A stretch of DNA of 64,000 nucleotides from Auanema rhodensis (lineage: Eukaryota > Animalia > Nematoda): contig OZ059898.1 of the NCBI GenBank assembly GCA_964057225.1, positions 9,796,001 through 9,860,000 of the forward strand. The letters run 5' to 3'. Within the stretch, counting starts at the first letter, position 1. Each line of letters starts with the position of its first letter. This document shows, piece by piece, positions 1,632-53,434 of the stretch. The notes beneath the pieces are model-generated. The model did not search any database. It was not told the origin of the DNA and was given only the letters and a program-made list of their open reading frames with translations. Both the position numbers and the translations under genes were made by a program.

Positions 1632-1702
1632 TGCATCGGCCGGGAATCGAACCCGGGTCGCCCGCGTGGCAGGCGAGCATTCTACCACTGAACCACCGAT
1701 GC
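1632..1702 (-). tRNA. tRNA-Gly(GCC)
   Basis: Full 71-nt cloverleaf, anticodon GCC, downstream T run. Confidence 0.96.
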
Positions 1703-5791: not shown

Positions 5792-5862
5792 TGCATCGGC
5801 CGGGAATCGAACCCGGGTCGCCCGCGTGGCAGGCGAGCATTCTACCACTGAACCACCGATGC
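5792..5862 (-). tRNA. tRNA-Gly(GCC)
   Basis: Full 71-nt cloverleaf. Confidence 0.96.
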
Positions 5863-7113: not shown

Positions 7114-7184
7114 TGCATCGGCCGGGAATCGAACCCGGGTCGCCCGCGTGGCAGGCGAGCATTCTACCACTGAACCACCGATGC
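7114..7184 (-). tRNA. tRNA-Gly(GCC)
   Basis: Full 71-nt cloverleaf. Confidence 0.96.
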
Positions 7185-7979
7185 TTCGAAAATGTTAGAT
7201 TGTTTCCGAAAAATTATGAAAAGTCAAGTTCTACTGATTTGAAGAAAATTGTAAGTTTTAGAAAATAATTAAAAATAAGTTCTCTCTACTATTAACTGAT
7301 TATCGGCTGAAATATGGTGACAGTTTTTTTTTAAAAGTTTCCATGATTAAGATTAAACAAAGAAAAAAAATCAAAGAGAAACACTTCTTGTTTACTTATT
7401 TGATTATAATACTTGAAATTCCAAAAACAGTAGAATAAAATTGAGAAATCGACAAAAACAGTTGAACGATTTGAAGAGTATTGTAAGTTTTAGAAAAGAA
7501 TTAATGTTCAGCTATCTCTACTATTAACTGACTATCGGCTAGAATAAGGTAACAGTTTTTATTAAAAGTTTCCATGATTAAGATTAAACAAAGAAAAAAA
7601 ATCAAAGAGAAACACTTCTTGTTTACTTACTTGATTATAATACTTGAAATTCCAAAAACAGTAAAATAAAATTGAGAAAGCGACAAAAACAGTTGAACGA
7701 TTTGAAGACAATTGTAAGTTTAAGAAAAGAATTAAAGTTTAGCTTTGTCTACTATTAACTGATTATCGGCTGAAATATGGTGACAGTTTTTTTTTAAAAG
7801 TTTTCATGATTAGGATTAAACAAAAAAAAGAATCAAAAAGAAACACTTCTTGTTTACTTATTTGATTATAACACTTGAAATTCCAACAAAAGTAAAATAA
7901 AACTGTGAAAGCGGGTAAAACTGTTGAACTAAAACAGTCTTTATAAAATATAAATGATATTTTTTTATAAAAGTGAAGT

Positions 7980-8050
7980 TGCATCGGCCGGGAATCGAAC
8001 CCGGGTCGCCCGCGTGGCAGGCGAGCATTCTACCACTGAACCACCGATGC
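7980..8050 (-). tRNA. tRNA-Gly(GCC)
   Basis: Full 71-nt cloverleaf; its 5' end is 62 bp from the BEL insertion point. Confidence 0.96.
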
Positions 8051-8112
8051 TTCGAAAATGTTAGATTGTTTCCGAAAAATTATGAAAAGTCAAGTTCTAC
8101 TGATTTGAAGAG

Positions 8113-18955: not shown

Positions 18956-21953
18956 ATGTCACTCCTTTTTGTCAATCATATCAAACAATCTAACCAGTTT
19001 CTTGGAGAACTGCTTACACGATACGAGATGGAAGTGAAGGACCTTCCTGGTATTCTGGTAGATTGCGACTTTCACACTGAGGAAGAAGAGGAAACCCTCT
19101 CTTGCCTTATCATTCGCTGGACAAAAGTCCAACACCAATTCAAAGAATCGTTGAAAAATCATCAAGATAACGAGAAAAAATTCCAAAAATTTTACGAAGC
19201 ATCAGACAAAACGCTCCGTAAAGCATTAGACGAACAGTACATCGCCTTCACATCCGATGAAGACTTTGAACCCAACATTAAAAAGGTTCAAAACGCCATT
19301 ATTGAGCTTGACGAACACATCATGAAAGCCGAACGCATACTTAGAAAGCTGAGAAAAACGCTTCATAAGAATGAATCTGAGCACAACAGCAATTGCTCAA
19401 CAGAAAACAATGAAACAGAAAACAAATCGAATGATCAATTTCTGGAAATTATCAAGTCATTCCTACACATCCAACAAACTAGCATCCAAAAACCAGCGAT
19501 GTCGCTACCTACATTTGATGGCAAACCAGAGAACTTCAAATCATTCTGGGGCCGTTTTGATAGACTTGTTCATGATAATGAACAGTTTACAACCTTAGAA
19601 AAGGTAAACCTACTCTGTGAAAGCCTCAAAGGCGATTCACAAATAGCAATCAGAGGAATAGAACCCTCTGCTCAAAATTATGAGCTCATGCGTGAAGCAT
19701 TAGTTTCTGAATTTGGAGACTATTCGTCGGATATCAACTCTCTTTTAACACAACTACGTAATTTGAGATTTGCAAGCAATAATGCAAAATCATGTAAAGA
19801 AACATTTGGGGAAACCAAGGCACTTATCAGGCAAATTGAAGCAGCCGGAGCTACAGTATCCCGCGAAATGTGTACCGCGATGATTCTCAACAAATTCCCA
19901 TACCACATCGTGGAAGACATTCTAATTTATCCAAACAACTACCATTCCACTAAAGAAATGCTGACAGCTGTAGACCACAAAATCTATTCCTTTTTTCTAA
20001 AAGAACAAACAAGAAATAGTCATGAACAAAAGTTTCGAAATCCCAAAGAGAATGTCACATCTGTAGCACATAAAGAAAACTCCGTAGAACAACGGAAAAC
20101 CCAAACTTGGCCATGTGTTTTCTGCGACTCATCCGAACATCGCTTTTATCATTGCACCACATTTGAAACACCAGAGAAAAGAAGACACCGCATCCGCGGA
20201 AAGGCCATCTGTTGGATTTGTTTTTCCGAGAAACACAAAAGTTCCGAATGCAGAAAACAAAAATGTCGAAATTGCCAAGGAGACCATAATTCCTCCTTGT
20301 GCTCACAAGGAAGAAAAAACGTGCAAAATATCCAAAAAGATAAAGAAACTCCCACAATTAAAAAAGATCAGGCTTTACTGATCACCACAGAAGAATTATT
20401 GAATGAAAAAACAACAGAATATAAACAAGAATCTGACACTAATAATCGAATCCCTACTGAGGCACTTAATGCACCAGTATCGCTTAATCACATTGCCGAC
20501 ACACATAATATTGAAGAAAGTCAAGTAATATTACGAACAGCAATGGCGAACATATACAACCACAATAGTAAAAAATATGAGCAAGTACGCATGCTCATAG
20601 ATGAAGGATCCATGAGATCTTTTATATCCAAGGACTTATCCACTAAGTTAGGATTGCCCATCCTTGGTTCTCAAAAGAAAACCTTTTACGGTATCGGAGC
20701 ATTGTCCGAAACGCACGAAGTTCAGGACGTAAAGGTAATTATTGGAACCTCAAGTGGATCCCTTATCGTAACAAAACTATTCACCAAACCCATGTTAACC
20801 ACACCCATACGTTGTCCAAAACTATCTAAAGAAGACTTGAAATTTATAAAGACAAGAAAAATAAAATTAGCCAATCCACAAACAAACGGAGAATCATTTA
20901 CTCCGGATATACTGATAGGTATGGATAGATACAAACTGTTCATGCATTTAAACGAAGAAACCGAACTCCCCTCACGTATGAGATTGAAAAATTTGGTATT
21001 CGGCCACATGATACATGGAGAAGCTCCTCTTCCCGATGATAATACACAACAAGAAGTAATATTATGCTCTACAGTAGAAGAAATAACAAAAGAAACCTCT
21101 CATAAAGAACTCCTCACTAATCTGTTTGAACTGGATTCTATCGGCATCAATACAGAAAATGCCAACGCAGACCGCACTATTGATTACTATGAAGAATACT
21201 CAAAAGATATAAAAATTGAGAACAACCGCATTATTGCACCGTTCCCGTTAAAAAATAACTTCAAAAATCTTAAAAACAACAAAATGCCCGCGTACCATAG
21301 ATTCGTATCCCTATGGCGAAAGTTACTGCACAATCCAGAAATGCTCTCACACTATACTACAACCATTGAAAGTTACCTCAAAGATAACATTGTCGAACAA
21401 ATTCCCAACAATCACCAGGAGCCTTTAGAGTTTTATATGCCCCACCATGGGGTTTGGAAGCCCAGCAAGGCTAACCCTCTCAGAATCGTTTTTGACGCCT
21501 CCGCTAAACAGAAAGACAGCCCATCGTTGAATGAGATAATACACACAGGACGATCATTTATCACATATATACACGACATCATGATCTCCTGCAGAACAAG
21601 ACCAATATTAATAACATGCGATATCAAAGCCGCATTTTTACAAATACAACTGACAGAGAATCACAAAAATCTATGCAAATTCTTTTGGATAAAAAACAAA
21701 GAATACCCAATATCTCACAATAATATCATAACCCTTCGATTCAACAGATTACCGTTCGGTATCACTGCATCCCCCAGCGTATTGAACATGGGCATAAAAT
21801 GGTTCTTAGAATCAAAAGTAGACAACCCATTAGCTATGGAAATACTGAACAACTTATACGTTGACAATATCATTCTTACAGCAAATACAACAGCAGAAGC
21901 TATAAAGAAATGTAAAGAAACCCAAAAACTATTTACAGAAATAAACATGCATG
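18956..21953 (+). pseudogene. BEL unit 2 gag-PR-RT, interrupted in RT by Gypsy element A
   Basis: Near-identical to unit 1 up to ...EINMH; the sequence resumes at 31336. Confidence 0.93.
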
Positions 21954-22352
21954 TGTAATATCCTTAAGTTGGATATTAATATTCCATGATTGACCCTTAG
22001 ATTGATGTGTTGTAAAAGAAACAATAAGATTTGAGGAAGAGAGAAAGATTTATTATAAATAAAAAACATTTAAACAATAAACAAATAAAGATAAAGATAA
22101 GTCCGCCAACTGAAGATTCAGTTGAATGGCAAGCTTATATAGCGAATGTTATCAGCATTTTCCACGAAAGGTTATAAGTTGTCAATGACAATTATAACTA
22201 TCTCGGAAAATGCTGAAGCTGCAAAATATAACTGATAACATAATACACTAAGACAAGAAACTAGAATTATAAAATATAAAATATAAAACACAGAATAAAG
22301 AAATACATAAAAATTATAGAAAGAATAAAGTACATAATTATAAAGTATAACA
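21954..22352 (-). repeat. Gypsy A 3' LTR
   Basis: Direct repeat of 30937-31335. Confidence 0.96.
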
Positions 22353-22409: not shown

Positions 22410-25400
22410 TCATAATGTTGCAGCAAGCTTTTTGATGAGATCCTTATGTACTTTTCTCATCTTTCCTTGACTCATTTCCAATTCCACATATGAGTTGTAT
22501 ACGCCTGTAATTTTGAACGGTCCATTATAAGTGGGTCGCAATTTGCCGTGAATCGTCATATCCTTCAATAGTACCATTTCACCTATTTCAAATATACGTG
22601 ATGCTATTCGGTTACTATTATTCAGCCGATTTTGTTGTTCAATTGATTTTAATTGAATTTTTTCTTGAATAGAATCCCAGGTATTTTTCCGGTTCTCATT
22701 TCTTTCCAATAATTCGTCATCTTCAGGAGAATTTAGATGAGGTTGTCCTGGTAATTGACGGTCCATAGGTAGGCGTGCGTCTCTTCCAAATAAAGCAATG
22801 TATGGGCTGATTCCGGTAGTTGTACTTGGGATTGTATTTAACGCGAATGTGATTTTAGGTAATTGTGAGGCCCATTGAGAGACACGGTTTTCAGCACAAG
22901 TGGATAAACATTCCTGGATGGTTCGATGTAGTCGTTCCACTTGACCGTTTGTATTTTTGTGATATGGCAGAGAGAAGGTTTGTACAATTCCAAATTCGTT
23001 GCACATTAACTTGAATTCTTTAGATATAAAATTTCCTCCATTGTCAGACACGATGCTCACTGGTGGTCCAAAAATGAAGACGAAATTCGTCAGGAACTTT
23101 CGGACTGTTTCTTCGGCATTCTGTGTGCGTAAAGGTATGCTCGTTATCCATTTCGAAAAAGCATCTTGAATAGAAAGAATATATTTAAATCCATTAGTGC
23201 TAGGGGAAAAAGGTCCTGTCACATCCATATAAATCCTATCAAATGGTTTTTGTGGGGTAACAAACTTTCCATATGGTTCTCTCGTTGTATCATGTTGATT
23301 TATTTTCCTTTTTGCGCATGTCAGGCATTGGCTGACGATCTCTTTCGCATCTTCCATCATATTTGTCCAATGGAATCTTCTTGATAATGCTGCATGTGTT
23401 CTTTTGATTCCTTGATGCGCTCCAATTCTTGCGTCTTCATGAAAAAGTTTCGCAAGTACTTGATTCAATGTCTTTTGTTTTGGAATCATAATCCTTGGAG
23501 AAAGATATTGTTTGTTAGGTCGAGCATGTAAAACTCCGTCGATAACAATATATCTATCGCTATTAATCTGTTTAGGTTGTTCCGTTAACATATCAGCAAT
23601 AGTTTCCTTAATCCATGGTGTTCCTTGTTGTAACTGAATTAGTTTGTCGGTATCCAGAGTTTCCACATTGGTTACATTTATGAGATAGTTGATGGTTTCT
23701 TGGATATCCGTTAAACTTGTTGTTGGCGTTGTCTTCTGTAGCTTCGGTTTAGGACCATCGTTAGCTTCGTTGCCTATGTATCTGGATAGTGCATCACATA
23801 CACTATTCATACGTCCTGGACGGTACATAATCACAATATCATATTCCTGGATCATTAACTGATATTTCGCTAGTCTTCCAATAAGATCTCTTCTACTCAT
23901 TAGACTGGTTAGTGGTCGATGATCCGTTATTAGCTTAGTTGACGTGCCTAAAACATATGTGCGAAATTGTTGTAATGCGTAGACGAGTGCCAAAGCTTCT
24001 AATTCGATAGGTGGGTATTTTCTTTCTGTAGGTGAGAGCTTCCTACTTGCGAACGCAACAGGGTGTAATCCATTTCCTGTATCTTGTAGTAAGACTGCTC
24101 CAATTGCAATAGTACTAGCGTCACTTTCAATAACAAAAGGTGCTCCATTTGTTGGTGGCTTCAGAACTGGTGCTGTGCATAGAGCTTTCTTGAGAGTCTC
24201 GAATGCTTTTTCACGTTCTTCCGTCCATTCGAAATCTTGATCCTTGTGTGTGAGTTGATACAACGGTTCGGCTATTTTGGCGTAGTCTCTGATGAATCGC
24301 CGAAAATAATTTGTCATTCCAAGGAATGAACGAATAGCGGTGACCGTTTTAGGAGTTGGAAATTTCATAACGGCTGTAATTTTTGATGGATCAGGTTGTA
24401 TTCCATCACGACCAATTATAAATCCAAGAAATTTAACTTGTGTAGCTGCAAATTTGCATTTACTTAGTTTTGCTTTCATTCCTAATCCTTGTAAAGCTTG
24501 TAACACTTCTTCTATATCCTCCAGATGTTGTTCAGCTGTGTTTGATATAATGAGTAGATCATCCAGATAAACAAAAAGTCGACATTTTACTTGATTTTGC
24601 AAATAGCGAACAGCTGATTGAAATGTATGTGGAGCTCCACAGAGACCCATCGGCATTCTGCAATATTGATAAACTCCTGATGAGGTCACAAATGCAGTGA
24701 GGTGACGGTCTTCTTCACGTAAAGGAATTTGAAAAAATCCCGATACGAGATCGATGTTTGTGAAGTATCGAGCTCCTGCAGTGCTGTCGATTATTTCTGG
24801 TATATGAGGAATAGAATAAGTCTGTTTCTGTGTGACACTATTGAGTGCACGGAAGTCCGTTACAAAGCGGAATGAGTTGTCTTTCTTCTTGACTAAGACG
24901 ACTGGACTTGTAAAACTTGATGTTGATGTTTCTATTACTCCTTGGTCCAGCATTTCTTTTACTTGACGTTCAACTTCATCCTGTTTACCCAAAGGAACTC
25001 GATATGATCGAGATTTGGGCAGGTCCATATCGGTTCTCAAAGTGATTGAATGTTGTATTGGTCCTTTGAATAATCCAATGTTCCGATCTTCGTTAAAAAA
25101 AGCATTTTTGAATCTTCTCAACATAGTTTTGAGATTTTGACGTTGATTTTTAGATAGATCCGTTGATTCGAATTTTAAGTTATCGAAAGGATTCTTCTCA
25201 AAAATAGGCAATTTATCTGACCAATCAGCTTCTGGTGGAATATAGTCCGGTATATGTGGGATTCCAATTTCTTCTGCTATTTTTCCTTTTCCAATAATGG
25301 TGTTTCCTGTTAACTTCACCTCATAATTTGCTGTATTGATGGCGAATATTGTGAGTGGTGAAGTCTTGATAGCAGTAGGTGTGAATTGAATAGGTCCATT

Positions 25401-28400
25401 TCCACATCGTATAAGAGCGTATTGTTTTGGTTGTAGTTCTTTTGCCAATTGTAGACGAATCATAGCTTTAGTTCGGGGTGGAATAATAGATTCTCTAATG
25501 TTTATAATTGAAACGGTGTCTGAACTGATGCGAAAGCTCTTCTGGTTAGCGGATAATAATGGTAGAAAATGGTTTCCAACTATTAATTGCTTGCGTAGAG
25601 CTTGTAGAGAAGTTGTTATTCCTTTTTCTTCTAATGCTTTCATGATGTCCAAACCAAGTAACATTTCAGTAGGACAATGTTTATCCTCAGAGATTAAAAA
25701 TGTGTGTGAAAGATGGTATCCAGCAATAACAATGTCCAACGTTATTGTACCCAGAAAGTTGAATATTGATCCATTTGCTGCGGTGGCAGAGATTTTAGTT
25801 GAGTTGAAATTCTCTTTTCCTAAATAGCGTACTGATGATTCCTTCAAATATGAAACAGATGCTCCGCTATCCCATAAAGCTACGAGTCCTCTGCCTTCTG
25901 CTTCGATTCTTATATATGGGAGTTCTCTTTTGTTTGTTGCACAGCATCCAACAAAAGGTATAATAATAGGAATAAAAGTGATGACAGTAGGAAAATATCT
26001 TCGAATAGTTTCATCGTCGGCTGGAACATCGATGTCAGCGTTGAGTAGTTCGTGTTGTTCAACTGCATTCACATTTAAGATAGGAACTTTCTCTTTGATA
26101 TAAGATACAACAATAATGTATAATGCTGATCCAAAGATTAATATAACTATCATAACACCTGCAGAGATAAACATTCTGTTGAGGGATCCAGCAAAGAAAT
26201 CAACTCCTCGTTCCCATAGTGATGATGCAATATTTTGAGTAGAACTAAAAAGTTCGTTACTTTTTGTAAACCATTCTGATAAGCCTGGCAAATTCGCTTG
26301 ATTCGTGATAACTCGTAGAAAATTTCTATGAGGATTGGTAGCGAAAATGTGTCCATATGTTAAGCTTATTGTTCTAACTAAGTTTTCATCGGTGATATTT
26401 TCATAAAGATTTCTTTGTGAAAATCGAATGGCTGCTAGATCGGGATACTGATCTGAACCAATGTTTAAAGCAGTTACGTTTGTAACTCCGTTGAGGGATT
26501 TCCATTCTCCATCCTCTTTCCATATATCATTTTCTACTGTTTCACATGGAATTTCAGTTCCATATGCTTCCAAATCTGCTGAATCTTGAGGTGCAAAGTA
26601 GAGGCGGTCATCATCCGTGATGACGGGTGTTTCTAAATAACACTTATCCTTGTATGTGTGGTTGCGATAAATGTGAATTGGTTCTATTGGCTGACAGGTT
26701 GAAACCCGAATAAGATTCCGTCCAATTATTCGAGCCACTACATCATCTCGTTGCATAATAGATCGGATAGCAATCGTAGGATTGATATTAAATATAGCTT
26801 GCCATGTCTTAATAAGTTCAAGTTGAGCATGACATATGCTGTGATGTTGATGATGAAATTCTTCGACCAGTATGGTTCTCATTCGTTCAAATCCATAGTT
26901 GAGTTTGTTGATGGTAGTTAATGCATCTCGATGTCGAAGTATAGTATTCTGGTGATCAGTTAAGTGAGTGCCGAATAATTCTTGAGCTTTCTCTATGCTT
27001 CCAATCATGGGTTGCATTGATGTCATCCCTTGAATAGTACTAATTGTTTGTTTTGTAGTAGATGATGTATTTACAACAGGTTTTGAGGTAGCACTAAGAA
27101 ATCGTGCAGTTGGCGTAGTTTTAGTGGTGATAGAGCGACTGAATACTCTTTTTGTAATCTCTTCAGGTGCTGGTTTTGAAAACCATGACATTAAATCAGT
27201 TAATTGTTTAGCGTCAATATTGATGTTACGGCTGTAGAGATCTTCTTTATTCGAAGGCATCGGTATTCCAAAATTGGTTTCTCGGTTTCTGAGTGTCCAG
27301 TTATCCAACAGCTTTAATTTCATTTCATATACTTGATCTTTCACTTGTCGTTGCATAAAATGACTATGAAAGAACAGTTTCATTCGATAATATTCTATCA
27401 GTTGAGGTTGAGAATACTGATAGCGTAGTTCACGAAGTAATTCTTTTGCTTTATATACCACAGAACGTGGATCTCCAAATGTGAAGTTGAGATGGTTTTG
27501 ATATACTGTGAATATCAAAAATTCGAGTGGTGGCACATATTCTGTTTCGGATAAGATTGCAGGTATTTGTATCAATTCCCATAATTTATCTCTTGCAACC
27601 GAAATTGTAGAATTGCCTGGTTTAACTATTCTTTTTATATAATTGATAGGAAGTCGGTGTGCTAGTTGACCGATGACAAAACTAGGCTCCATTTGTTCGA
27701 TCCACATTTTTGTAATCATCTTGCTTTCTTCTCCTCCTAGAGCATGTAGTAAGAGAATATTCGGATCGCGGAAGTCTTTTAAATTTGCCCAGTAATCTAT
27801 AGTATGATCAGTAATGTTCAAAATATGGACAGCTGACAGCAAAAATTGATGATATCGAGCAATAACAGTCAGGTTCTGATATTCGTTGCTAACTGATTGA
27901 TAGTGATACCAGTTATGAATATATCGTATGGTATTTCCGCCAGACGTGACAGTATATCTAGCAAACGGTAGATCCAATATTTGAATAGGAGTTAACTTAT
28001 ATTCCATTTCTGAGCGAAATGACGCAATTAAGGATGAATTTGTTGAACGTTTATAGCGTTGGCGTGAAGGATCCATTTGATTATCCAAATAACTTGTTAG
28101 ATCCAGTAGAGAATATGCATGCGGATAATCAATAAACGAGACAAGAGTCTCAGTAGTGGATTCAAAAATTGGTGAAGAAAAACAAGATTGAGTTGTAGTA
28201 GATGCTGAGGTGTTGGCTAAGACAAGTGCTGTTTCTAGACTTGATATTAGCAGTGTTTGATCTCCAAGTATTCCATACAGAGGTCCAATACGTGTGTATT
28301 GGCATGGTGCTCGGGGTGTGGGTGGTTTCCAAACTACTGAACCATCTCCAAATGTACAGCTTCCCATTTGAGCTTTACAGCCTTCGGCGTTGACAATTAA

Positions 28401-29936
28401 GTCAGATACAATAGTATTGTCCTTTAAATTTGTAATAACTCCTCGCTCCATCACAAATTGAGTTAAGTTGGCGCATTGAGTAAAACTGAAGAAACGTTCC
28501 GGTTCATATACTGGCTTAGGAGCTTCATATGTAAGTGGATTAGCGCTCAACAGTTTTTCATTTTTCCATTTCTTGTCTCGAGCAGCTATACGGCATTCTT
28601 CTACAGATACATATCCATTACCAATGATGGTGTCATTGCTTTCTCGGAACCAAAATTGATCCGTTACACATAATCGATAGATGCGTGTATAACATTTCCA
28701 CGCTTCCCATGTTACGACGGTTTGTTTAGGAATGAACAATTCAACGTTAACTTGATGAGCTTGTTGAATTGCTTTCCGTTGGCATCCTGTTATCTTTGGT
28801 GGTGTCATCAGAATTCCTCCTTTATGAGCTAAACATAGTTGATATGAAGCATTCACAGTGGGAAGCAGAAATGTGCAGATTATTGTTGTGAGCAGGAATG
28901 GTAATGCAATAGTATTTATATTGAATCGAGGTTTCCATCGTCGTTGATTGCCTTGATTCTCTCTTGGATAATTGTCGCGATTATTCCTGGCAAAGTTGTC
29001 TCGGTTTTCTCTTTGATAATTGTTGCGAGGTTCTCTCGAATGGTGATTACTCTCCATTGAGTAGTTGTTTCCATAATTTTGTCGAGGGCCAGAGTTCCTG
29101 CTGAATTTATTTTTGAAATTCTTCCAAGGGTTTCTTGAATTGTTGCCATTGTTCCGTTCGAAATCTCGTGGCTGCTGATGGTTCCTTTGGTTCCTATTTT
29201 CCTTCATGGTGATCTTCTGAACTGCAGAGATCAACTCTTGCATAGTTGAGTTTTCTTCATGCTGTTTTTTATAGTTAGCACGAATTGCTTCTTCAAAACG
29301 TGCTGTCCTTTTTGCTTCCTCATAAGTCTTCGGATCTTTTCCTTGAACAATTATGCCTAAATCAGCGTTCAATCCATTTAAGAAAGCTGATCTTAATATG
29401 AGCTCTCTTTCTCGATCAGTTGGGCTCATAATACTGGAAGCCATTTCTTCCAAGTATGAGGCAAACTGAGTAACAGTTTTCTCTCCTTGCGTCGAGCGTA
29501 GCAACTTCGCGATCGTGAAATTCCTTTCCGTGGCAGGGCAAAGTAACTCTGCCAATTGTGAAACAAGGTCTTTCCAAGGTCCTCGTTCACGAATTTCGGA
29601 AGGAATCGAGTTATATGCAGAGATCGCAGAATCATTCTGCTGAAGCAGCAGAGGAAGAAGAAAAATTCTTTCAATTACAGAAAGTCCCGCAGCATTCGCG
29701 AATCGGTTAAATATATCGATGTACGATCGAAAGCTTCGGCTACCATCGTATTTGGGGCAGTGTGGACTGCCTAGAACTTTTGTTAAGTTTTTGGTCAACT
29801 CTGGAGATGCCATTAAATTAGGCGTTTCCAGAGTTGAATCTCTGTTTGATTGCTCATGTGGTCTCATGTTGAGTAGGAGCTTCAGAGGTAGTTTTTCGCG
29901 CTGGGGAGTTTTTTCTTTTTTCGGTGTTACAGCCAA
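22410..29936 (-). CDS. Gypsy A single polyprotein: Gag - gB-like glycoprotein - PR - RT - RNase H - IN
   Basis: PKYDG...FLNGL capsid; signal peptide ~28910-28848; RQRYKR; TM ~26174-26098; LWDSGAS; YLDD; SDAS/TDH/DALSR; HQG..CLTC, DDE, GPF. The frame is open from 30113 and the first ATG is at 29867. Confidence 0.95.
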   Translation of the reverse strand: MAVTPKKEKTPQREKLPLKLLLNMRPHEQSNRDSTLETPNLMASPELTKNLTKVLGSPHCPKYDGSRSFRSYIDIFNRFANAAGLSVIERIFLLPLLLQQNDSAISAYNSIPSEIRERGPWKDLVSQLAELLCPATERNFTIAKLLRSTQGEKTVTQFASYLEEMASSIMSPTDRERELILRSAFLNGLNADLGIIVQGKDPKTYEEAKRTARFEEAIRANYKKQHEENSTMQELISAVQKITMKENRNQRNHQQPRDFERNNGNNSRNPWKNFKNKFSRNSGPRQNYGNNYSMESNHHSREPRNNYQRENRDNFARNNRDNYPRENQGNQRRWKPRFNINTIALPFLLTTIICTFLLPTVNASYQLCLAHKGGILMTPPKITGCQRKAIQQAHQVNVELFIPKQTVVTWEAWKCYTRIYRLCVTDQFWFRESNDTIIGNGYVSVEECRIAARDKKWKNEKLLSANPLTYEAPKPVYEPERFFSFTQCANLTQFVMERGVITNLKDNTIVSDLIVNAEGCKAQMGSCTFGDGSVVWKPPTPRAPCQYTRIGPLYGILGDQTLLISSLETALVLANTSASTTTQSCFSSPIFESTTETLVSFIDYPHAYSLLDLTSYLDNQMDPSRQRYKRSTNSSLIASFRSEMEYKLTPIQILDLPFARYTVTSGGNTIRYIHNWYHYQSVSNEYQNLTVIARYHQFLLSAVHILNITDHTIDYWANLKDFRDPNILLLHALGGEESKMITKMWIEQMEPSFVIGQLAHRLPINYIKRIVKPGNSTISVARDKLWELIQIPAILSETEYVPPLEFLIFTVYQNHLNFTFGDPRSVVYKAKELLRELRYQYSQPQLIEYYRMKLFFHSHFMQRQVKDQVYEMKLKLLDNWTLRNRETNFGIPMPSNKEDLYSRNINIDAKQLTDLMSWFSKPAPEEITKRVFSRSITTKTTPTARFLSATSKPVVNTSSTTKQTISTIQGMTSMQPMIGSIEKAQELFGTHLTDHQNTILRHRDALTTINKLNYGFERMRTILVEEFHHQHHSICHAQLELIKTWQAIFNINPTIAIRSIMQRDDVVARIIGRNLIRVSTCQPIEPIHIYRNHTYKDKCYLETPVITDDDRLYFAPQDSADLEAYGTEIPCETVENDIWKEDGEWKSLNGVTNVTALNIGSDQYPDLAAIRFSQRNLYENITDENLVRTISLTYGHIFATNPHRNFLRVITNQANLPGLSEWFTKSNELFSSTQNIASSLWERGVDFFAGSLNRMFISAGVMIVILIFGSALYIIVVSYIKEKVPILNVNAVEQHELLNADIDVPADDETIRRYFPTVITFIPIIIPFVGCCATNKRELPYIRIEAEGRGLVALWDSGASVSYLKESSVRYLGKENFNSTKISATAANGSIFNFLGTITLDIVIAGYHLSHTFLISEDKHCPTEMLLGLDIMKALEEKGITTSLQALRKQLIVGNHFLPLLSANQKSFRISSDTVSIINIRESIIPPRTKAMIRLQLAKELQPKQYALIRCGNGPIQFTPTAIKTSPLTIFAINTANYEVKLTGNTIIGKGKIAEEIGIPHIPDYIPPEADWSDKLPIFEKNPFDNLKFESTDLSKNQRQNLKTMLRRFKNAFFNEDRNIGLFKGPIQHSITLRTDMDLPKSRSYRVPLGKQDEVERQVKEMLDQGVIETSTSSFTSPVVLVKKKDNSFRFVTDFRALNSVTQKQTYSIPHIPEIIDSTAGARYFTNIDLVSGFFQIPLREEDRHLTAFVTSSGVYQYCRMPMGLCGAPHTFQSAVRYLQNQVKCRLFVYLDDLLIISNTAEQHLEDIEEVLQALQGLGMKAKLSKCKFAATQVKFLGFIIGRDGIQPDPSKITAVMKFPTPKTVTAIRSFLGMTNYFRRFIRDYAKIAEPLYQLTHKDQDFEWTEEREKAFETLKKALCTAPVLKPPTNGAPFVIESDASTIAIGAVLLQDTGNGLHPVAFASRKLSPTERKYPPIELEALALVYALQQFRTYVLGTSTKLITDHRPLTSLMSRRDLIGRLAKYQLMIQEYDIVIMYRPGRMNSVCDALSRYIGNEANDGPKPKLQKTTPTTSLTDIQETINYLINVTNVETLDTDKLIQLQQGTPWIKETIADMLTEQPKQINSDRYIVIDGVLHARPNKQYLSPRIMIPKQKTLNQVLAKLFHEDARIGAHQGIKRTHAALSRRFHWTNMMEDAKEIVSQCLTCAKRKINQHDTTREPYGKFVTPQKPFDRIYMDVTGPFSPSTNGFKYILSIQDAFSKWITSIPLRTQNAEETVRKFLTNFVFIFGPPVSIVSDNGGNFISKEFKLMCNEFGIVQTFSLPYHKNTNGQVERLHRTIQECLSTCAENRVSQWASQLPKITFALNTIPSTTTGISPYIALFGRDARLPMDRQLPGQPHLNSPEDDELLERNENRKNTWDSIQEKIQLKSIEQQNRLNNSNRIASRIFEIGEMVLLKDMTIHGKLRPTYNGPFKITGVYNSYVELEMSQGKMRKVHKDLIKKLAATL

Positions 29937-30923
29937 GTGTGTTGGCGTTTTTTCGTCGTCCGATGGACTTAAATCGTTGTCAAACGAGTCGTCACTATCG
30001 GGAAAAGGAAATCGAGAAATACGATTTCTCTTGTCTCTTAATCTTTGAGAGGTACGGAAAGGCGTATCCGTATAATTATTCTTGGAGGTTGCCGTTTTGG
30101 AAAAGGAGGAAAGTCAGAACAATCTACAATGTAAAATAGTGGAATAAGTTAGTAAACAAGATAAGAATATGAATAGTTAATAGTGAATAAATTAGTGAAT
30201 AACGTGAAAAAAAAAATCAAAGAAAAAAAAGATATATAATAATATGGGTTGAAGATTAATTAATTAATGAACTCATACAAAAACAAACTATAGAGAGGAA
30301 AAAAAAAAAGATGTGAATATAATTAATTGTTAAGATGATGATAGGATATGATTATGTGACAATGTGATTCATAAATTAGAGAAGTGAGTATGGCGGACAA
30401 ATCAAAATCTCAATTGTTACTGAATAACAATGAATTACCAAACAAGGCATCTTTCAAATTCCAAAGTCTTTGTTTCAACTTGAATCAACAATCAAAAAAT
30501 TATGAGAGGAAGGTTTAAATTCAAATATGACAAATGATACAGCGGATGTTATTTTCTTACAGTGGCCATTCTGTTAGTACAAACTTGTAATCTTTATCAA
30601 AAATATCGCAAATTGACTTTATTAAGGTCCAATTTTGCTTATATCAAACAGCTTTTCCATTTCCAAAAAATATATATTTTTCGCCACAATGAAAAATCAA
30701 AAGTACAACTGCGCAGAAACAAAAAGAAATCGAAAAGTTGGCCAATTCAGTATCTCACCCTTGCGCAAAATATCAACCCTGTTTATTAAAAAAATGAGTG
30801 AGACCCTTCGTACTGAATTGGAAAGAGAGGTGGTAGCCCAGGGAAATAGCTCAAAAAAATTCTCTTTAACTGAATGATAATTCATAATTTAATCGAGTTC
30901 GAAAAATCGTAAAAAGATTCTAA

Positions 30924-30936
30924 GGTGGAACCTCCA
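30924..30936 (-). promoter_or_regulatory. Gypsy A PBS, complementary to the tRNA-Gln 3' end
   Basis: TGGAGGTTCCACC directly follows the 5' LTR; metazoan tRNA-Gln ends ...GGUGGAACCU-CCA. Confidence 0.85.
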
Positions 30937-31335
30937 TGTAATATCCTTAAGTTGGATATTAATATTCCATGATTGACCCTTAGATTGATGTGTTGTAAAA
31001 GAAACAATAAGATTTGAGGAAGAGAGAAAGATTTATTATAAATAAAAAACATTTAAACAATAAACAAATAAAGATAAAGATAAGTCCGCCAACTGAAGAT
31101 TCAGTTGAATGGCAAGCTTATATAGCGAATGTTATCAGCATTTTCCACGAAAGGTTATAAGTTGTCAATGACAATTATAACTATCTCGGAAAATGCTGAA
31201 GCTGCAAAATATAACTGATAACATAATACACTAAGACAAGAAACTAGAATTATAAAATATAAAATACAAAACACAGAATAAAGAAATACATAAAAATTAT
31301 AGAAAGAATAAAGTACATAATTATAAAGTATAACA
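30937..31335 (-). repeat. Gypsy A 5' LTR
   Basis: Direct repeat of 21954-22352, adjacent to the PBS. Confidence 0.96.
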
Positions 31336-31779
31336 CATGTTCGCGAATTCTTGTCAAACGACGAACAAGTAATACAGAACCTTCCTGAAGAAGACAGATA
31401 TCCGAACATGACAACCAAAATACTTGGCATATCTTTTAATAAAGAACACGACTCCTTCATTATCCCAATAAAAATAACAACGACTCACACAAGTTACACC
31501 AAGAGAATTCTACTCAGTCAGCTACACTCAATATTTGATCCCATTGGATTAGCAGCACCATTACTGTTACCTCTCAAACTTATCTTGCGAGAAATCATAA
31601 ACACAAAATTATCATGGGACCAACCCATTGAATCAGATAATATCAAACAATGGGAACAACATATTAATCACATTAACAATCAGCAATTGACCATGAAAAG
31701 ATATTTTAAATTCTCTGTTGTTCATATTTCCAAACAAACGAGCAGATTAGTTCTCTGCTCAACGGTAAATCCCGCATAG
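31336..31779 (+). pseudogene. BEL unit 2 remainder of RT/RNase H after the Gypsy A insertion
   Basis: Continues ...HVREFLSNDEQ as in unit 1. Confidence 0.92.
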
Positions 31780-41786: not shown

Positions 41787-42144
41787 CGTTCCGTTATGCT
41801 CCCGCGTCGATCTTACAGACCAATGGAGTCTACAAGATGAGCGTGGTAGTATTCCAGATGTAGCGGTTAAACATGGAGCATAAGGATAAACATAAGACTC
41901 GAGAAAGATTGGTTTATTATATCTACGTGATTACAATAAGATACATATAACTAAGTAAAGGTTAAACTAATAGAGAACAGAGAGAGAACGACCAACCATC
42001 CATGATCGTCCCTGAGGCAAAGCTGAAGTGTTGTAATATGGAAAAGGGCGGGTCGTCTTCTCTCAGTCTCGCATTCTCTGACTCTAACCCGCCTGCTACA
42101 GCTTCGTCATATGAATGTAATGCATTGATCATCCGAATGGAACG
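41787..42144 (-). repeat. Gypsy B 3' LTR
   Basis: Direct repeat of 53077-53434; minus-strand PPT at 42145-42154. Confidence 0.96.
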
Positions 42145-42837
42145 TGCCCTTTTTCGAGTTTATGTCGCGTCCTCGCGACAATCAAAAGTTTTGACTTGAT
42201 TAACTGTAGCAGAAGGGTTAATGTGTGTATTAAAGTACATGTTACAATACAATATTTTACGTAAAATTCTTATAATATGAACATAATACAATATAAAACA
42301 TCAGTATCTGAAAAGAATTAAAAAAAATTTTTTTTAACCAAATTATGAAAGTTTTAACCCTCTTTAACGAATACTAGACTATGTTTTATTGGCGAACGTG
42401 CTTATAAAATAATAAAAAAAAAGTTTTTAAGCATAACGCTCCAACAAGTGTAGATAAAAAGTTAACTATTTTTTTGCTAGAGCTCGGTTGTTTGTTTCAA
42501 TTTGTGTGAGTTTAGAAAAAAAAGAAAAGTTTTGCGTAATACCAAATAACTTCCAAATTGAGTCATTGATTACTCAAGTGAAGACTGTTGCTCAGATATT
42601 GTTGCAAACTATGTCTTTCATTTTTCATCTCATCTAGTATGGGGAAGTTAGTTGAAATTAGGAAGGTTCGAACTATATGATAAAGAATTATCTTCTCACA
42701 TTTCCCGTGTTCATTATGCTCTAGTTTACTTTTTGACTTAAGAGTGACTTGTTTTAGAGGACTCGTTACAAAATTTGTGTTCTAGTATTACTTTAAAGAA
42801 AGTTATTACAAAACAATTTACAATAAAATCTCATGAG

Positions 42838-45800
42838 TTAATGGTTTTTTCTTGATGGTAGCCAATTTGTATCCGAAAGGTCTTCTGGTTCGTCATAAGA
42901 GTCTTCATCGTTGTTGTTTCCGTTGATAACCTCTATGATTTCAATATCGCTGTCATCGTCTGAGCTGTCTGTACGTGTACTGGGCTTATGTGCGATTCCG
43001 TCATCTGTTTCTCGATTAAATAATTTGAGATTGTCCTTGTGAACGTCTTGAATCTTTCCGAAAAGGTTTTTGATTTGAACCATGTTTCCCTTCACATTTA
43101 TAACTTCAAATGGTCCATCATAAGCTTTCCGAAGCTTTTGTCCTGGCTTGTGCATTTTCACAGCTAACATAACGCAGTCTCCTTCTTGTATATCTCTTTC
43201 GTGAGTGCGTAATCGAGCATCATGTTTCTTTTTTGCTAATTCTTGATGCTTTTCCAAATTTTCTTGAATGATTGTTTTCTGTTTGCTTCGGATTTTCTCA
43301 ATATTTTCAATCTCCTTTGAAATTTCCTTTGGTTCAGTTGTTTCGGGGTATAAATCTTTATCCAATCTCAAACGGCTTTCTTTCCCGAATAGTACAACGT
43401 ATGGTGATATTCCTGTGGTTGCATGCGTTGTGGTGTTCAATGCAAAGGTAATTTTTGGCAAAAACATGTCCCAATCAGTGACATCTTCGTTGAGATAATG
43501 TGTGAGTCCTTCTTCTAACGTTCTATGAAGTCTTTCTACTTGTCCATTGGAATTCTTCTGATGTGGGAGTGTTGATTCATGTTTGATACCGAGTTTTTCG
43601 CACATGTCTTCAAATTTCCTTGATAGGAAGTTGGAACCGCGGTCTGTTATTAAGCGGTTCGGTGGTCCATAGACATATACAAAGTTTCTGAGGAATCTAT
43701 CAATGACAACTTCACTAACAATTGTTGGTATGGCGATAGTTGTAGCCCATTTGGAGAAAGAGTCTTGTATTGTGAGGACATAGCTGTTGTTCCTTTTTGA
43801 TGTTGGGAATGGTCCCATGATATCCATATGTATTCTCTCAAATGGTTTTGATGGTATGTTAAATTGACCCATCGGTTGTACGGTCATAGCATGAGGATCT
43901 TTCTTTCGTTGTGCACATTTGATGCACTGTTTTACGTATTTTGCTATGTCGTTCTGCATGTTAGTCCAGGAAAATCTTCGTAATATGGCTTCTTTTGTTT
44001 TGTTGATTCCTTGATGCGCCCCGATTGTTGGGTCTTCATGAAATTCTTCAATGATTTTGTTAATTATATCACTATCCGATGGCAATATTAACGCTGGATG
44101 AGGTCTTTTGACGCTTGGTTTTGTGTAGAGTAAGTTGTTTATAACACAATAACGATCATTTTGAATCATATTTTTCTTCGTTCTGTATTCAATCTCAGCT
44201 ATTGTTCTCTTGATCCAAGGAGTATTTTGTTGGATTGAGCTGAATTCTGGTAACTTCACAACATTTACTTGTTGTGTCTCAATTTTCTCTTTCGAATTCG
44301 TCTTTTGTTTCTTGTTCGACGTCTTTGGATCGTTAGCTTCATCTCCAATGTATCTAGAGAGTGCGTCACAGACTTTGTTTAATCTGCCTTCTCGATATTT
44401 GATCTCAATATCGTATTCCTGTATGACCAATTGGAACTTTGCTAGTCTTCCAAATAGGTCTCTTCTAGTTAGTAAGCTTGTCAATGGGCGATGATCGGTG
44501 ATGCAAATTGAATGTGATCCAAGTATGTATGTTCGAAACTGTGCTAGAGCGTAAACTAAGCCTAAGGCTTCTATCTCTATGGGAGCATAGTTACGTTCTG
44601 CTTTTACTAATTTCCTACTTGCGAAAGCAATTGAATGTAAGTTCTTGAATGGTTCGTTTGGATCTTCGGGCTGCAGTAATACTGCGCCTATGGCGATGTT
44701 GCTGCCATCACTTTCAATGATGAAAGTTCGGTCTGATCGTGGTGGTTTCAGTACCGGTGCTTCGATTAGTCGTTCCTTTAGCTTATCTAGTGAACGTTGA
44801 CATTCGCTAGTCCAATTGAAGTCTGCGTCTAGCTTAGTAAGGTCATACAGCGGACTTGCTATATGTGCAAAATCTTTAATAAATTTTCTAAAGAATCCGA
44901 CCATTCCTAAGAATGCTCTTACTCCTGTGGGTGTTTGAGGAGCAGGGTAATCGCGGATGGCGGAAACTTTCTGTTGATCGGGCTTAACTCCGTCTCTTCC
45001 GACAATGAGTCCGAGAAATTTCACTTCTGGTCTTGCAAATGAACATTTCTTGAGTTTAATCTTAAATCCTAGTCTTTCTACAGCGAGTAATACTTCTTTG
45101 ATGTCTTCGAGGTGTTGTTCTGCGCTGTCTGATATGACTAGTAAATCGTCCAAATAGACAAATAGTCGGCATTTACATTTACTTTGGAGATATCTCACGG
45201 CTGTTTGAAAGGTATGTGGCGCACCACATAATCCCATAGGCATTCTCCTGTATTGATAAGTCCCACTATTGGTGGTAAAGGATGTGAGTGGTCTATCCTT
45301 CTTCAATAATGGTATTTGGAAAAAGCCAGAAACAAGATCAAAATTAGAAAAGTATTGTGATCCAGCCGCTAAGTCAATGATATCAGAGATGTTAGGAATC
45401 ACATATGTTTGTTTTCTTGTAACGTTATTTAAGGCTCGGAAATCCGTAACGAAACGGAATGTTTCGTCTTTTTTCTTAACGAGAACGACAGGGCTGTTGA
45501 ACAAAGATGTCGATCGTTCTATTATCCCTTGCTCGAGCATTTCTTGGACTTGTCTTTCTACCTCTTCTTGTTTCCCGAGAGGTATACGTGAAATTTGTGG
45601 CTTTGGCATATCCATATCCGTTCGTAGTGGTATCTTGTGTTCTACTGGTCCTTTGAACAATCCTATCTTTTTATCTTCATTGAGGAATGCCTTCTTACGC
45701 TGACGAATGATGTTTCGTAGTTCGTCTTTTTGTCGTTGCGTAAGATCAGCCTCTTTTAGGTCAAGTTCTTTCATGAAATCACCAGGGAAGTGAGGTAATT

Positions 45801-48800
45801 TGCCTTCCCAGTCTGCTTCTGGTGGAATATAGTCGTACTGTTGTTCTGTTGAGAAGATTTCATAGTCCGGTATAGATCCTATTTCGGCTTCTGCAATCAC
45901 AGTGCCGGCCGGTATTTCTATGAATTCTTTAGAATTGTTCCGGAATTGGATATTGATGGAGTTAACATCGCGAAATGCTGTGTCGTATCGAGGTGAGAGA
46001 GGAGTATTGTCGTTTGGTTTAATCATAGCGATTAAGTCTTCTCCGATTGGGTTCTCTAATTGGACTTGGAAATTAAAAACTTGTCGAGGAAGTAGACTCC
46101 GCGGCTCCAAGGTTATCAAATTAACAGTTTTTGATATCCTGTTAATATCCCCGTTAATTCCGCTAGCCAAAGGTACTACATGATTTCCAATTTCCAGTGT
46201 TCTTTTGTATGGTCTTAGTTTCATGCCAATGTTTTGACAGTCAAGTGTTTTCATGAAATCTAATCCAATCAACGCTGGCGATGGACAGTCTTTGTCGTCT
46301 GATATGAAGAATGTATGGTCGATTTCGTAACCGGCTATTTCGACGGTTAAGTCGATAGTACCAATGAATACAAATTCTGATCCGTTCGCTGTTGTTGCTC
46401 TTAATGTATTCTTCTTAACAAAGTCATTCAAAGCTAAGTAGTGTAGTGTCGATATTCTTATGTAACTGACGGACGAACCTGAGTCCCATAAAGTTAGGAT
46501 CAGTCTATCATTAACAGTCATCCATAGAAGTGGTAGTGCTTGATCTTTCTTTTTGGAAATCGAGCAAACTAATGGTAGTGCGATTGGTATGAATGTGAGC
46601 ATTGATGGATAGTATTGTTTCATTATGTGTCTTGGAATCGGTTGATCCGGATGACTAACTAATTCCAAAGTTTCTTCGTATGTTGGTAGATCACTGTCGT
46701 GAACTTTGAGTGCAATATGCATAACTGGTATGCCTACTGGTTTGAAGAAATAGATCTTTACAATGAAACCTATCACAAAGAGTATGATGGTAAATAATGT
46801 AATTGCACCGATCGTTATTAGTGTTCGCTCAATCGTTCCTGCAATTGTATCGATGAATGACTTCCATGTGCTCTTGGTGAATTCTTGAGCTTTCGATATG
46901 TAGTCGCTACTTTTCTTTAGTACACTGAATGTAGCTGATATCTTTGGATCATTGTGAATTGTGTGAAGAACGTGATTCTGACGAATCGATGCTAAACTCG
47001 CACCGTAAGCTATGGCTGTGGTCATTGAGTATACACGAGACGATAAATTAGTGTATAAGTGAGCTCCGGTGAATTTTAATGGTGTTATTTTTTCGTGATG
47101 AAGTCCGTCCCACATTGATACAAGATTGACGTCTGCAGTCCCATTAATTCCTTTCCATTCACCTTCGCTAGACCAGATATCTGTTGGTACGTGATCACAG
47201 CTTATTTCTTTACCATGAGGTAAAAGATCCTTGGATCCGGGTGCTGCAAACAGTAACTGTCCGTCTTGTGTCCAGACTGGGGTTTCGAGATAGCATGTGC
47301 CATTTACGGTGTGATTGTGATAAATGGTTTTCTCTAGCACTGTAGGGCATACATGTATATGCAAAATTTCATTGCCTACAAACCGTGCGGCTATATCTTC
47401 TCTTCCCAGTATTGTTCGCATTGCGATTGTTGGTTCAATTTGTAGAATTGATTTCCATAATTCCAGATACCGATTTTGTATCTCGCAAATCGATTCGTAT
47501 GATTCTTCAAAATGTTTCTGCAATTCCTCTTGGATCATTGTAGTAGCATACTGTAAATGATCTTGGGCTATTTTGTTCGATATATTTTGACGAAACTCTT
47601 GTACCGAGTCAATTTTCGTTGCTATGTATCTCGCATTTGCTTCCACTAAATTTGAGGTTTCTACTGATGGTGTTGAGGAAGCTCGGTTTTTTCGAATCAA
47701 TGTTGGAGAGGCTTCGGTTGTCTCTTGTATTTTTGGAATCTGTGCGTCTTTGTATATGGCATAGCTTCTTGTTGTTGTTGGCGAACGAGCGGTTGATGTT
47801 GTTGTGCGTGCTGTTGTCGCAGCGGTCGTGTGAGGCGCCGTTGTTGATGGCTGTTGCCTCCATGATCGTGCTCTTGTGGTGGTTGTTGCATTTGTGTGAG
47901 GATTGTTCGTTATATGCGGCTGTATTGTGGTAACTGATTGGATTGTTCCCTTCTGTTCGATCAAAGGTTGGACTGGTGTCACAACCGCGCCGCTAGCCGC
48001 GCCGCCTGCAGCGACGCTAGCCGCGCCGCCTGCCGCGACGCTGGATGTCCGCGTTGCGATTTGCCGAAAATTTGTTTCATTTTTCTCTGCCATTAAGATT
48101 TGAAGTTGTTCTTGTGTTATCCTACTCGATGTATAAGGTGTTTTTACATTATTGAGCAGGGGTAAAAATATTTCCAATAATAATTTCTTTGAAAGATTGC
48201 TGGGCTTGATCAGCTTAGGGTGTGGACCGATCGGTATTCCATAATTATTCTTCCTGTCATAAAATAGTTTATCTGTATTTGGCATGAATTGTCGTGATGC
48301 TGGCAATTTTATAAATTTTCTGTCATCAATAAATGCTGCAGTTTTATTCCATCGTACTGTTGTGAGGGTTTTTAGTTCTCTTAGTAAATTGATCGTTGCC
48401 TTAATGAATTCGCTTTTCTTCTCTTCCTCGTCAGTTAGTATACCTTTTCTTATTGGTGGCATTTGTATGAACGTTTGTAGGACTTCTTGTCGTGATGGAA
48501 CTGTCAGTCCTTCTTCAATTATAACTGGTGTATTGGTTAAATTGAGAGCTATGCTTTCAATTCGTTCGCGATATGAACCTTCTTTCTTCCTTATGATTTC
48601 ATCGAATTCGATTACTGTCAAACGATCTGATATTTGTTCGAGAAGCTGTTCAGATGTTAAGTATGATATTGCTGCCTTTGTAGTAATGGCTAATTCTCTT
48701 TGTGCTATATAATATAGCAGAGCTTCTTCTTTATCACTGAAATCGTATTGCTTGAGAAAATGTCGAACAGAATGTTCATTTATTTGAATTCTGAAGAAAA

Positions 48801-51567: not shown

Positions 51568-53063
51568 CTTGCTAGAACTCTTGGTTTGAAAAAACCTTGA
51601 GTGCTTGGTAACGTGTGGGATGTTGAGACGTTAAAGAATGCGGTGAATAAGGATGAGGATGTAGGCAAAATGAGAAAGGCTTTGGAGAGCGACCGGTGTC
51701 GTATCGACAACTTGTGAGAATGAGGTCGATGCCTTGGCCAATGGCGATGGATCCGCCTTCTACTGTGTGATATCGGGACTCTGGTGCTCTCCGTATTTTC
51801 TCTGTAGTTGAAAATCTGATTCACAAAACATCTGGGGTGACCAAGCTGTTATTTTACAAAACGTTTAGTGTAATTCGTAATATTCGTTCAATTACAGCAC
51901 ATTTTACTGATTTGTATGCAACCATTTTCCTCATGCTGACTAAACTTATGTTTTGTTACACTAGTTTCTCGGCCATGTGGTGTGTCATCTTGCAACAAAA
52001 CTTATGGTGTAATTCGTAACATGCTTTTGATAAAAGAGCAGTTTAACAATAAATGTGCACCAATTTCTCTTTTGTCGCCAAAAATAATTTTTGTTTCTTT
52101 ACAATCTGGTTTTCAAATACATTTGGTGTAGCTCGCATGTTTCGTTGTAACAAAAGTCATGGGATTCGTAATATTAGTTTTACAAAAGAGCGTTTCGCAA
52201 TGATGAATGTAGGTATTTCGTGATCAGAAATCGAATTTTGAAATAAAAGCAGAATTAAATGGCTAAATATTACAAGAACTAGTATTAAAGTTGGAATAAG
52301 GTTCAATGCGTGAGTCTTATGCTTCTGAACAACAATAACGGTATGAGGAAGGTGACATTCAGTAAGGGGAGAAAATCCAAAGCGATATGCTTTAGCCAAC
52401 ACGACCTGTGTTAATCATGATTCAAATTCGAGATAACATTTTTCAACAGGATTTTTCGGACTATAGCGATCTATAAATTAACAATCCTCCCTTTTTGGTG
52501 AGGTTTCCCGTGTAATTTTTTTTCATGCGTACTGATTATAAATTTAGGATGTTAGAAGCAAAATTTGTCTGAACGAAATCGTAACGCAAAATAAAATAGT
52601 CCTGATCGCAAAACAAACTTCATCCACGAAATATAAAGATATAACCGAAGTTATTCTTTCCTTGAAGCCAAAATTAATCCTTAAAAAGGAGAAAGCGTGG
52701 GAAATACGAAATAACAATTACTTTAGGTGAATTTGTTCACTAATTCAGCCTAAAGCCCTCATCAAGCTTCAAGGTTGGGTAACAGAGCATTTCAGATGTT
52801 ATAAGCAAGGATACGAAATTTAAAGGTTCAGACGAAAGAATTTTTGTGAACAAACGGGAAAATAATAATCTCGAAACGTATAATCCTTCTTTAAAAAAAA
52901 AAAGGATTCCTTGCCTCTGTTCCCATTTAACGTTGTTGGCCCCTCCGTATTGTGTTAAGACATAGAGTAGATGGTATGAGAAAAAGAGAGATGAAAGAAA
53001 TTTGAAAATGAATTAACAACACAAACATTAAAGAGAAGGAAAAAAAAATTGTGATAAGTTCGA

Positions 53064-53076
53064 GGTGGAACCTCCA
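53064..53076 (-). promoter_or_regulatory. Gypsy B PBS, complementary to the tRNA-Gln 3' end
   Basis: TGGAGGTTCCACC directly after the 5' LTR end GGAACG; same PBS as element A. Confidence 0.85.
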
Positions 53077-53434
53077 CGTTCCGTTATGCTCCCGCGTCGA
53101 TCTTACAGACCAATGGAGTCTACAAGATGAGCGTGGTAGTATTCCAGATGTAGCGGTTAAACATGGAGCATAAGGATAAACATAAGACTCGAGAAAGATT
53201 GGTTTATTATATCTACGTGATCACAATAAGATACATATAACTAAGTAAAGGTTAAACTAATAGAGAACAGAGAGAGAACGACCAACCATCCATGATCGTC
53301 CCTGAGGCAAAGCTGAAGTGTTGTAATATGGAAAAGGGCGGGTCGTCTTCTCTCAGTCTCGCATTCTCTGACTCTAACCCGCCTGCTACAGCTTCGTCAT
53401 ATGAATGTAATGCATTGATCATCCGAATGGAACG
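53077..53434 (-). repeat. Gypsy B 5' LTR
   Basis: Direct repeat of 41787-42144. Confidence 0.96.

Follow-up and report, generated by a model that had tools for sequence, protein, structure and literature searches.

The window analysed here is a 64,000-nucleotide stretch of Auanema rhodensis contig OZ059898.1, and all positions are counted within it. Between 8110 and 55160 lies a nested cluster in which tandem BEL/Pao copies (99.7-100% identical) are broken by two gypsy elements, A and B. The BEL/Pao element carries a YVDN reverse transcriptase motif, a coding region in two frames, and an env of the phlebovirus G2 type, class II (Pfam, E 3e-42), with class II and class III env-bearing elements nested within one another. 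The cluster sits in a 231-bp tandem array with 10 interspersed tRNA-Gly(GCC) genes (1-8100 and 55160-60260), which contains an inverted block at about 55200-57600. A third gypsy relative, element C (61221-63998, minus strand), shows only its Pol, 71% identical to the Pol of B, with the 5' part beyond the window.

Element A lies on the minus strand, bounded by a 5' LTR of 399 bp with TG...CA ends (30937..31335) and a 3' LTR identified by pairwise LTR comparison (21954..22352). The two LTRs are identical at 398 of 399 bases (99.75%), with one difference. A tRNA-Gln-type primer-binding site (30925..30936, minus strand) immediately adjoins the 5' LTR, and the element is flanked by a 4-bp target-site duplication, CATG, at 21950..21953 and 31336-31339, which carries no strand assignment. 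The empty site of A is visible in two uninterrupted copies of the host BEL/Pao element. Element B (41787..53434, minus strand) has 358-bp LTRs that are 99.7% identical, the same primer site as A, and an open reading frame (ORF) for gag-env-pro-pol at 42838-51630 (2,930 codons). Its LTRs start with CGTTCC and end with GGAACG instead of TG...CA; the 4-bp duplication is clean, and empty sites are present in two other BEL copies.

The coding region of A is a single ORF of 2,567 codons from stop to stop (22410..30113, minus strand), encoding in order Gag, a signal-like stretch, a class III fusogen, one transmembrane (TM) helix, protease (PR), reverse transcriptase (RT), RNase H (RH), and integrase (IN). 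The earliest ATG lies at 29865-29867. Since the long ORFs of both A and B lack an ATG near their start, the true Gag start may derive from an upstream exon. The leader of A (30114-30936) holds short intron-like segments, and in the long leader of B (51631-53076, minus strand), short open stretches rich in Cys and His may belong to a spliced accessory gene.

The Gag capsid-like region of A (aa 106-280; 29274..29798, minus strand) matches Pfam Retrotrans_gag weakly (E 0.013), the Gag of B passes the cut-off for the same family (E 8e-6), and a single blastp match between the two elements spans A aa 64-872 at 28% identity. It is followed by an Arg/Asn/Gln-rich, nucleocapsid-like region without a CCHC knuckle in sequence and motif scans (28920..29273, minus strand). 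Downstream of the fusogen are an aspartyl protease with a DSG motif (aa 1403-1492; 25635..25919, minus strand; Pfam E 1.2e-6) and RT (YLDD), RNase H, and integrase in Ty3/gypsy order (22794..24893, minus strand; Pfam E 1e-34, 3e-35, and 2e-17). The PR-RT-RH-IN order, gypsy-type domains, LTRs, primer site, and target duplication place A among Ty3/gypsy elements (Metaviridae). Belpaoviridae are defined by a BEL/Pao Pol and an env 3' of integrase, whereas A has a gypsy-type Pol and an env 5' of protease, and a Pfam search of its ORF matched neither Pao peptidase A17 nor DUF1759.

A first-pass annotation of this DNA had placed the fusogen in frame between Gag and protease, and every motif that it quoted was recovered in one stop-free frame: ALPFLL at aa 403 (nt 28907), RQRYKR at aa 684, ICHAQ at aa 1093, CYLETP at aa 1158, MFISAG at aa 1314 (nt 26174), and LWDSGAS at aa 1413, with the fusogen segment covering aa 402-1339. 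Its coordinates had been given without a strand; the feature is on the minus strand. Other details required adjustment. The TM helix and the LWDSGAS protease are both present but are not directly adjacent, a tail of about 55 residues (aa 1340-1395) separating them. The ectodomain described as Cys-rich does contain the cysteines, but split into two clusters (aa 427-644 and 1094-1190) that stand about 450 aa apart, with no cysteine in between. The N-glycosylation sequons attributed to the ectodomain are likewise present (13 in 894 aa); with 4 sequons in the 1,228 aa of Pol and 6 in the 319 aa of Gag, the ectodomain is enriched relative to Pol only.

The predicted ectodomain shows the arrangement of a class III fusion protein. 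Domains I-II (28134..28847, minus strand) align to herpesvirus gB, are modeled at pLDDT 86-98 per 10-residue block, and contain two aromatic-tipped hairpins that are candidate fusion loops. Aromatic residues are expected at the tips of the bipartite fusion loops of class III fusogens. A furin-type site, R-Y-K-R (aa 686-689; 28047..28058, minus strand), was located by motif scan, and a basic site in the gap between the N- and C-terminal parts of Env is found in 24 of 34 long or selected rows, including A and B. A Ser/Thr-rich linker (26994..27146, minus strand), disordered in the model and likely O-glycosylated judging from its composition, precedes the gB-type domain III long helix and domain IV crown (26394..26987, minus strand), which are recognized by Pfam PF24664, by profile comparison with HSV gB, and by pLDDT above 90. 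Pfam Monjiviricetes_fusion matches A aa 1051-1208 above its cut-off (E 1e-11), and Glycoprotein_B overlaps it at aa 1068-1148 below its cut-off (E 1.7e-4).

A family profile built from A, B, and 104 of 150 listed homologs (106 sequences, with 46 omitted, mainly long polyproteins and short fragments) matches HSV gB at E 7e-18 and rabies G at E 3.5e-7; phmmer with A alone gave no match among PDB sequences, and word-indexed homolog searches with the Env region found nothing. In the AlphaFold2 monomer model of the ectodomain (893 residues), 361 residues reach a pLDDT of at least 90 and 374 fall below 50. Domains I-II (model residues 1-260) and III-IV (about 630-790) are mostly above 90, and domain V and the membrane-proximal region are of low confidence. 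All listed Foldseek rows against the PDB are herpesvirus gB (best E 5e-10), with a TM-score of only 0.17 by query length and an rmsd of about 25 against postfusion gB, the low TM-scores and high rmsd arising because of the 374 residues below pLDDT 50. VIA alignment of the model with prefusion EBV gB gave a Z of 14.5 and an rmsd of 6.3 over 375 aligned residues. Among viral structures (BFVD), the G proteins of Beihai rhabdo-like virus 3 (E 1.5e-15) and Nyavirus (E 3.9e-13) match best; as these are glycoproteins of negative-strand RNA viruses, the term gB-like names a fold and not a herpesvirus donor. The model contains a beta-rich fusion domain with bipartite hydrophobic loops, a long central helix, and a crown domain. 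The gB-type identity claimed in the first-pass annotation, which had proposed a check by structure prediction and Foldseek against known fusogens, is borne out by profile search, AlphaFold model, Foldseek, and VIA comparison, with matches to both gB and negative-strand RNA virus glycoproteins. As judged from profile and predicted structure, Env of A is a class III gB-type fold.

Between the furin site and the linker lies a Cys-free, predicted helical insert of roughly 290 aa (27189..28046, minus strand), which aligns with element B and the homologs P0003, P0017, and P0079. In a 152-sequence search, A aligned to P0003 at E 9e-8 and to B at E 0.004, and a profile of these five members detected a shorter piece in P0014, P0052, and P0009 (E 1e-4 to 5e-3). 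In A the N- and C-terminal cores of Env are 401 aa apart and in B 506 aa; in the listed homologs the spacing varies from about 17 to 513 aa. Searches with the insert returned no Pfam family for the copy in A and isolated weak matches for other members, no match among PDB sequences, only P0017 (already a query member) in a word-indexed profile search, and scores all under 0.9 in the ESM Atlas. Its structure model is helical with a pLDDT of 46. The best VIA match among 48,161 chains (Z 6.1 over 43 residues) is a common small helical arrangement, and for this reason no fold is assigned.

The length variation behind the furin site bears on whether Env still works as a fusogen, as does the wording of the published nematode survey discussed below (PMC13524379), in which, in a passage on F-type ENV, intact structure only 'could suggest' intact function. 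Both would suit a protein retained as a membrane scaffold or a local aid to cell fusion, with the element spreading only within or between adjacent germline cells. We regard this as improbable: domains I-IV, the disulfide cysteines, the aromatic loop tips, the furin site, and the TM helix are kept at about 30% identity (31% between the Env regions of B and A), which argues for selection on a working fusogen.

Membrane topology was assigned by Kyte-Doolittle hydropathy. A predicted internal signal sequence (aa 402-422; 28848..28910, minus strand; hydropathy 2.14) is preceded by basic residues, the net charge upstream being +4 in A and +2 in B. The TM helix (aa 1314-1339; 26097..26174, minus strand) has a hydropathy of 2.75. 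The predicted cytosolic tail (25929..26096, minus strand) contains a candidate protease site at aa 1348-1354 by motif scan and a second hydrophobic stretch at aa 1374-1392. Across the family, a signal-like peak lies upstream of the ectodomain in 23 of 25 Gag-bearing homologs, and a TM helix lies upstream of protease in all 29 homologs carrying both Env and protease. The second hydrophobic stretch before protease occurs in A (2.08) and B and could cross the membrane; a peak over threshold within 30 aa of protease is found in 2 of 29 homologs, and a third TM helix ahead of protease was rejected as not conserved. The two-pass topology with a cytosolic Pol proposed in the first-pass annotation fits the hydropathy profiles across the family and is the arrangement we infer.

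An I/V-N-x-I/V motif occurs just upstream of the signal in A (aa 399-402) and in B, and again in the tail of A. Against shuffled sequences, the motif stands out from chance in B alone (4 of 500), A and C giving 63 of 500 and 87 of 500, respectively. A widened form, defined post hoc on sequences already seen, precedes the signal in 14 of 25 homologs (one of these matches probably lying inside the signal) compared with 7 of 100 ectodomain control windows, which are lumenal, and it occurs in 11 of 29 tails. These junction motifs are putative cleavage sites of the element's own protease. A Pro-rich hydrophobic motif just upstream of protease (25938-25994, minus strand) is shared by A and B, with traces in P0005, P0009, P0052, and P0106; it is possibly a membrane-proximal or cleavage element.

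On this topology, translation would bring the internal signal behind Gag into the ER membrane, with the Env ectodomain passing into the lumen to be glycosylated and disulfide-bonded. Signal peptidase would cut the N end of Env and furin would cut at RYKR, while the single TM helix would stop transfer, so that PR-RT-RH-IN would stay cytosolic, attached to the tail of Env. Gag would be held at the membrane through the signal anchor until the element's protease later freed Gag and Pol at I/V-N-x-I/V-type sites on either side of Env. Flaviviral capsid is similarly released from its membrane anchor. Gag, Env, and Pol would arise in equal amounts (1:1:1), and budding into the secretory pathway would yield particles with the fusogen aboard. 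A further, tentative proposal, which we put forward with more doubt than confidence, is that one sub-lineage gained the conserved helical domain of about 290 residues as a receptor-binding or shielding module, and that flavivirus-style threading ties Gag and Pol to Env, making enveloped budding obligatory.

A 1:1:1 protein ratio is unusual for retroelements, and the single ORF might therefore be the genomic form only, with spliced RNAs giving soluble Gag or Gag-Pol without Env and the full polyprotein a minor product. Such splicing has a parallel in Cer1 of Caenorhabditis elegans, described as yielding a spliced product in the portion of PMC10309623 consulted. Transcript evidence was sought in three sets of RNA-type contigs from one study ('RNA?', runs not recorded as RNA), which were compared with A and B; Env is uncovered there, and the sets are uninformative for it. 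In a contig of run X1 (depth 2.9), position 28995 is joined directly to 22741; the 6,253 nt left out include all of Env, PR, RT, and RNase H, and the contig lends weak support to splicing. The joint nevertheless occurs in this contig alone, which derives from a diverged copy, with 8 differences over 151 nt. It shows microhomology of 6 nt, does not keep the frame (6,253 not being a multiple of 3), and lacks canonical sense-strand GT-AG ends in the window sequence, whereas the two clear introns in the same runs are antisense. Scans for splice and frameshift signals found neither a sense-strand donor fitting the search pattern ahead of Env nor a slippery heptamer around the Gag/Env border. Expression mainly through Env-free spliced RNAs accordingly appears quite improbable, and production from the single ORF remains the preferred reading.

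The antisense RNA lies over integrase (22699-23150, plus strand) and contains GT-AG introns of 43 and 46 nt (runs X1 and X2, one study). Its frame is open for about 95 codons across both introns, a pattern found at 6 of 2,800 slid positions. Neither B nor C has acceptor 1 or donor 2, and B also lacks acceptor 2, so these introns are likely cryptic. The RNA is likely the result of cryptic splicing of read-through from the plus-strand BEL element, though it may represent an antisense gene.

Homologs of the ectodomain were collected by phmmer against 1.84 billion representatives, yielding 222 matches at E 0.001 or better, 150 of them listed. Probed with the domains of A and B, 40 of the 150 listed homologs encode Env ahead of Pol within a single polypeptide, and in 14 of these Gag was detected in front; the remainder comprise 20 with Gag-Env and no Pol, 3 with Env after integrase, and 87 with Env only. 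A homologous Gag lies 5' of Env in 34 of the 150. Pfam analysis of 17 long homologs identified P0069, P0077, and P0140, scored as Env only by the probes, as BEL elements with a 3' env; together with the 3 cases of Env after integrase, at least 6 of the 150 listed are therefore BEL-type. The survey of gag-env-pol order that had been suggested at the outset thus finds the layout to be common in the family of A. The RT tree (22 rows) joins A, B, and C as sister to P0009/P0052 (support 100/97), and the Env tree (27 rows) places A, B, and P0003 together with P0009, P0006, P0005, and P0004 (support 99/99). Near the tips, the two trees fit env and pol having been inherited together; they do not resolve the deep branches, several of which are long.

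An assembly chimera or a single capture of env from the adjacent BEL element, which might be suspected as A lies inside a tandemly repeated BEL/Pao element with an env of its own, has a negligible chance of explaining the layout, which recurs in element B and the 40 listed homologs, is framed by clean LTRs, a target duplication, and empty sites, and involves an Env unrelated to the phlebovirus G2-type env of the BEL element.

Considering these results together, element A is, with a probability of roughly 80%, an intact, recently inserted Ty3/gypsy element encoding Gag, a class III gB-type fusogen, and Pol in a single frame, whose polyprotein would be threaded through the ER membrane and which likely belongs to the published nematode gag-env-pol lineage. 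Such an element raises two mechanistic questions: how capsid, fusogen, and enzymes could come 1:1:1 from a polyprotein that crosses the membrane, and whether invertebrate gB-type Envs fuse membranes. Elements A and B are young and intact, their domain borders are clear, and they offer candidate cleavage sites as well as a furin-loop insert specific to the lineage; they make both questions addressable and bear on the route from retrotransposon to enveloped virus.

The topology may already be covered by Sacco and colleagues, who reportedly found a continuous gag-env-pro-pol ORF. By title and later citation, the non-canonical nematode ERVs of Sacco et al. 2022 (J Gen Virol 103:1739) resemble A in their flipped env/pol order and as a metavirus with an RNA-virus-like glycoprotein. 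Credit for the flipped order in nematodes is given to that study by Chary and Hayashi (eLife 2026, PMC13524379), in whose sections compared here the errantiviruses of nematodes, bryozoans, and platyhelminths carry only HSV/gB-type ENV in the order GAG-ENV-POL. Like these, A has uninterrupted GAG, ENV, and POL in that order, with a gB-type ectodomain between signal and TM helix. The table of PMC13524379 covers 36 nematode elements, and the 12-mer complementary to the primer site of A is listed exactly for 2 of the 36, Clat_errantivirus_4 and Ctro_errantivirus_1, as Gln_UUG_CUG. Clat_errantivirus_4 (Caenorhabditis latens, Nematoda_C1) shares with A the gene order, the gB-type class III Env, the Ty3/gypsy Pol, and the 12-nt primer site, as far as its published entry was compared. 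It is also the closest by eye among the 32 nematode domain I-II rows compared (15 C1 and 17 C2), with all 8 cysteines of domains I-II (A aa 474-644) appearing to match, along with several motifs. On this by-eye comparison and the shared primer site, A likely belongs to the published nematode GAG-ENV-POL lineage; the RT and Env trees presented here cover elements of the window and their listed homologs. A nematode host also fits the phlebovirus-type env and YVDN motif of the neighbouring BEL element, the 43-46 nt length of the introns, and the type of primer site.

A and B nonetheless differ from the published entries, as two 6-residue motifs taken from them occur 0 times in Supplementary file 2 of PMC13524379. 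The word 'polyprotein' occurs 0 times in its main text, and the sections compared do not discuss single-frame processing or a large insert behind the furin site. Given that these passages are silent on it, the insert may be the sole part of A without a published description. A literature search for a single polyprotein with a signal-peptidase mechanism found no paper, and a search for the layout found it described only in PMC13524379, with Sacco et al. 2022 known through its citation.

More distant systems share single features with A. Herpesvirus gB and mononegaviral G share the fold of its Env at 8-14% identity, but are free-standing proteins with their own N-terminal signal, outside any Gag-Pol polyprotein. 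Within Belpaoviridae, as described in the parts of PMC9094657 consulted, Atlas virus resembles A in its single stop-free polyprotein, but in the order Gag-Pol-Env, and Tas resembles it in its gB-like env; unlike A, both have a BEL/Pao Pol and a 3' env, that of Atlas being class II. Because env lies at the 3' end in Atlas and Tas, their Pol never follows a membrane crossing. The novelty of layout that the first-pass annotation had left open does not hold, since GAG-ENV-POL gB-type nematode elements are already described in PMC13524379, which credits Sacco et al. 2022: the gag-env-pol layout is published, and A and B are two further members of the published class.
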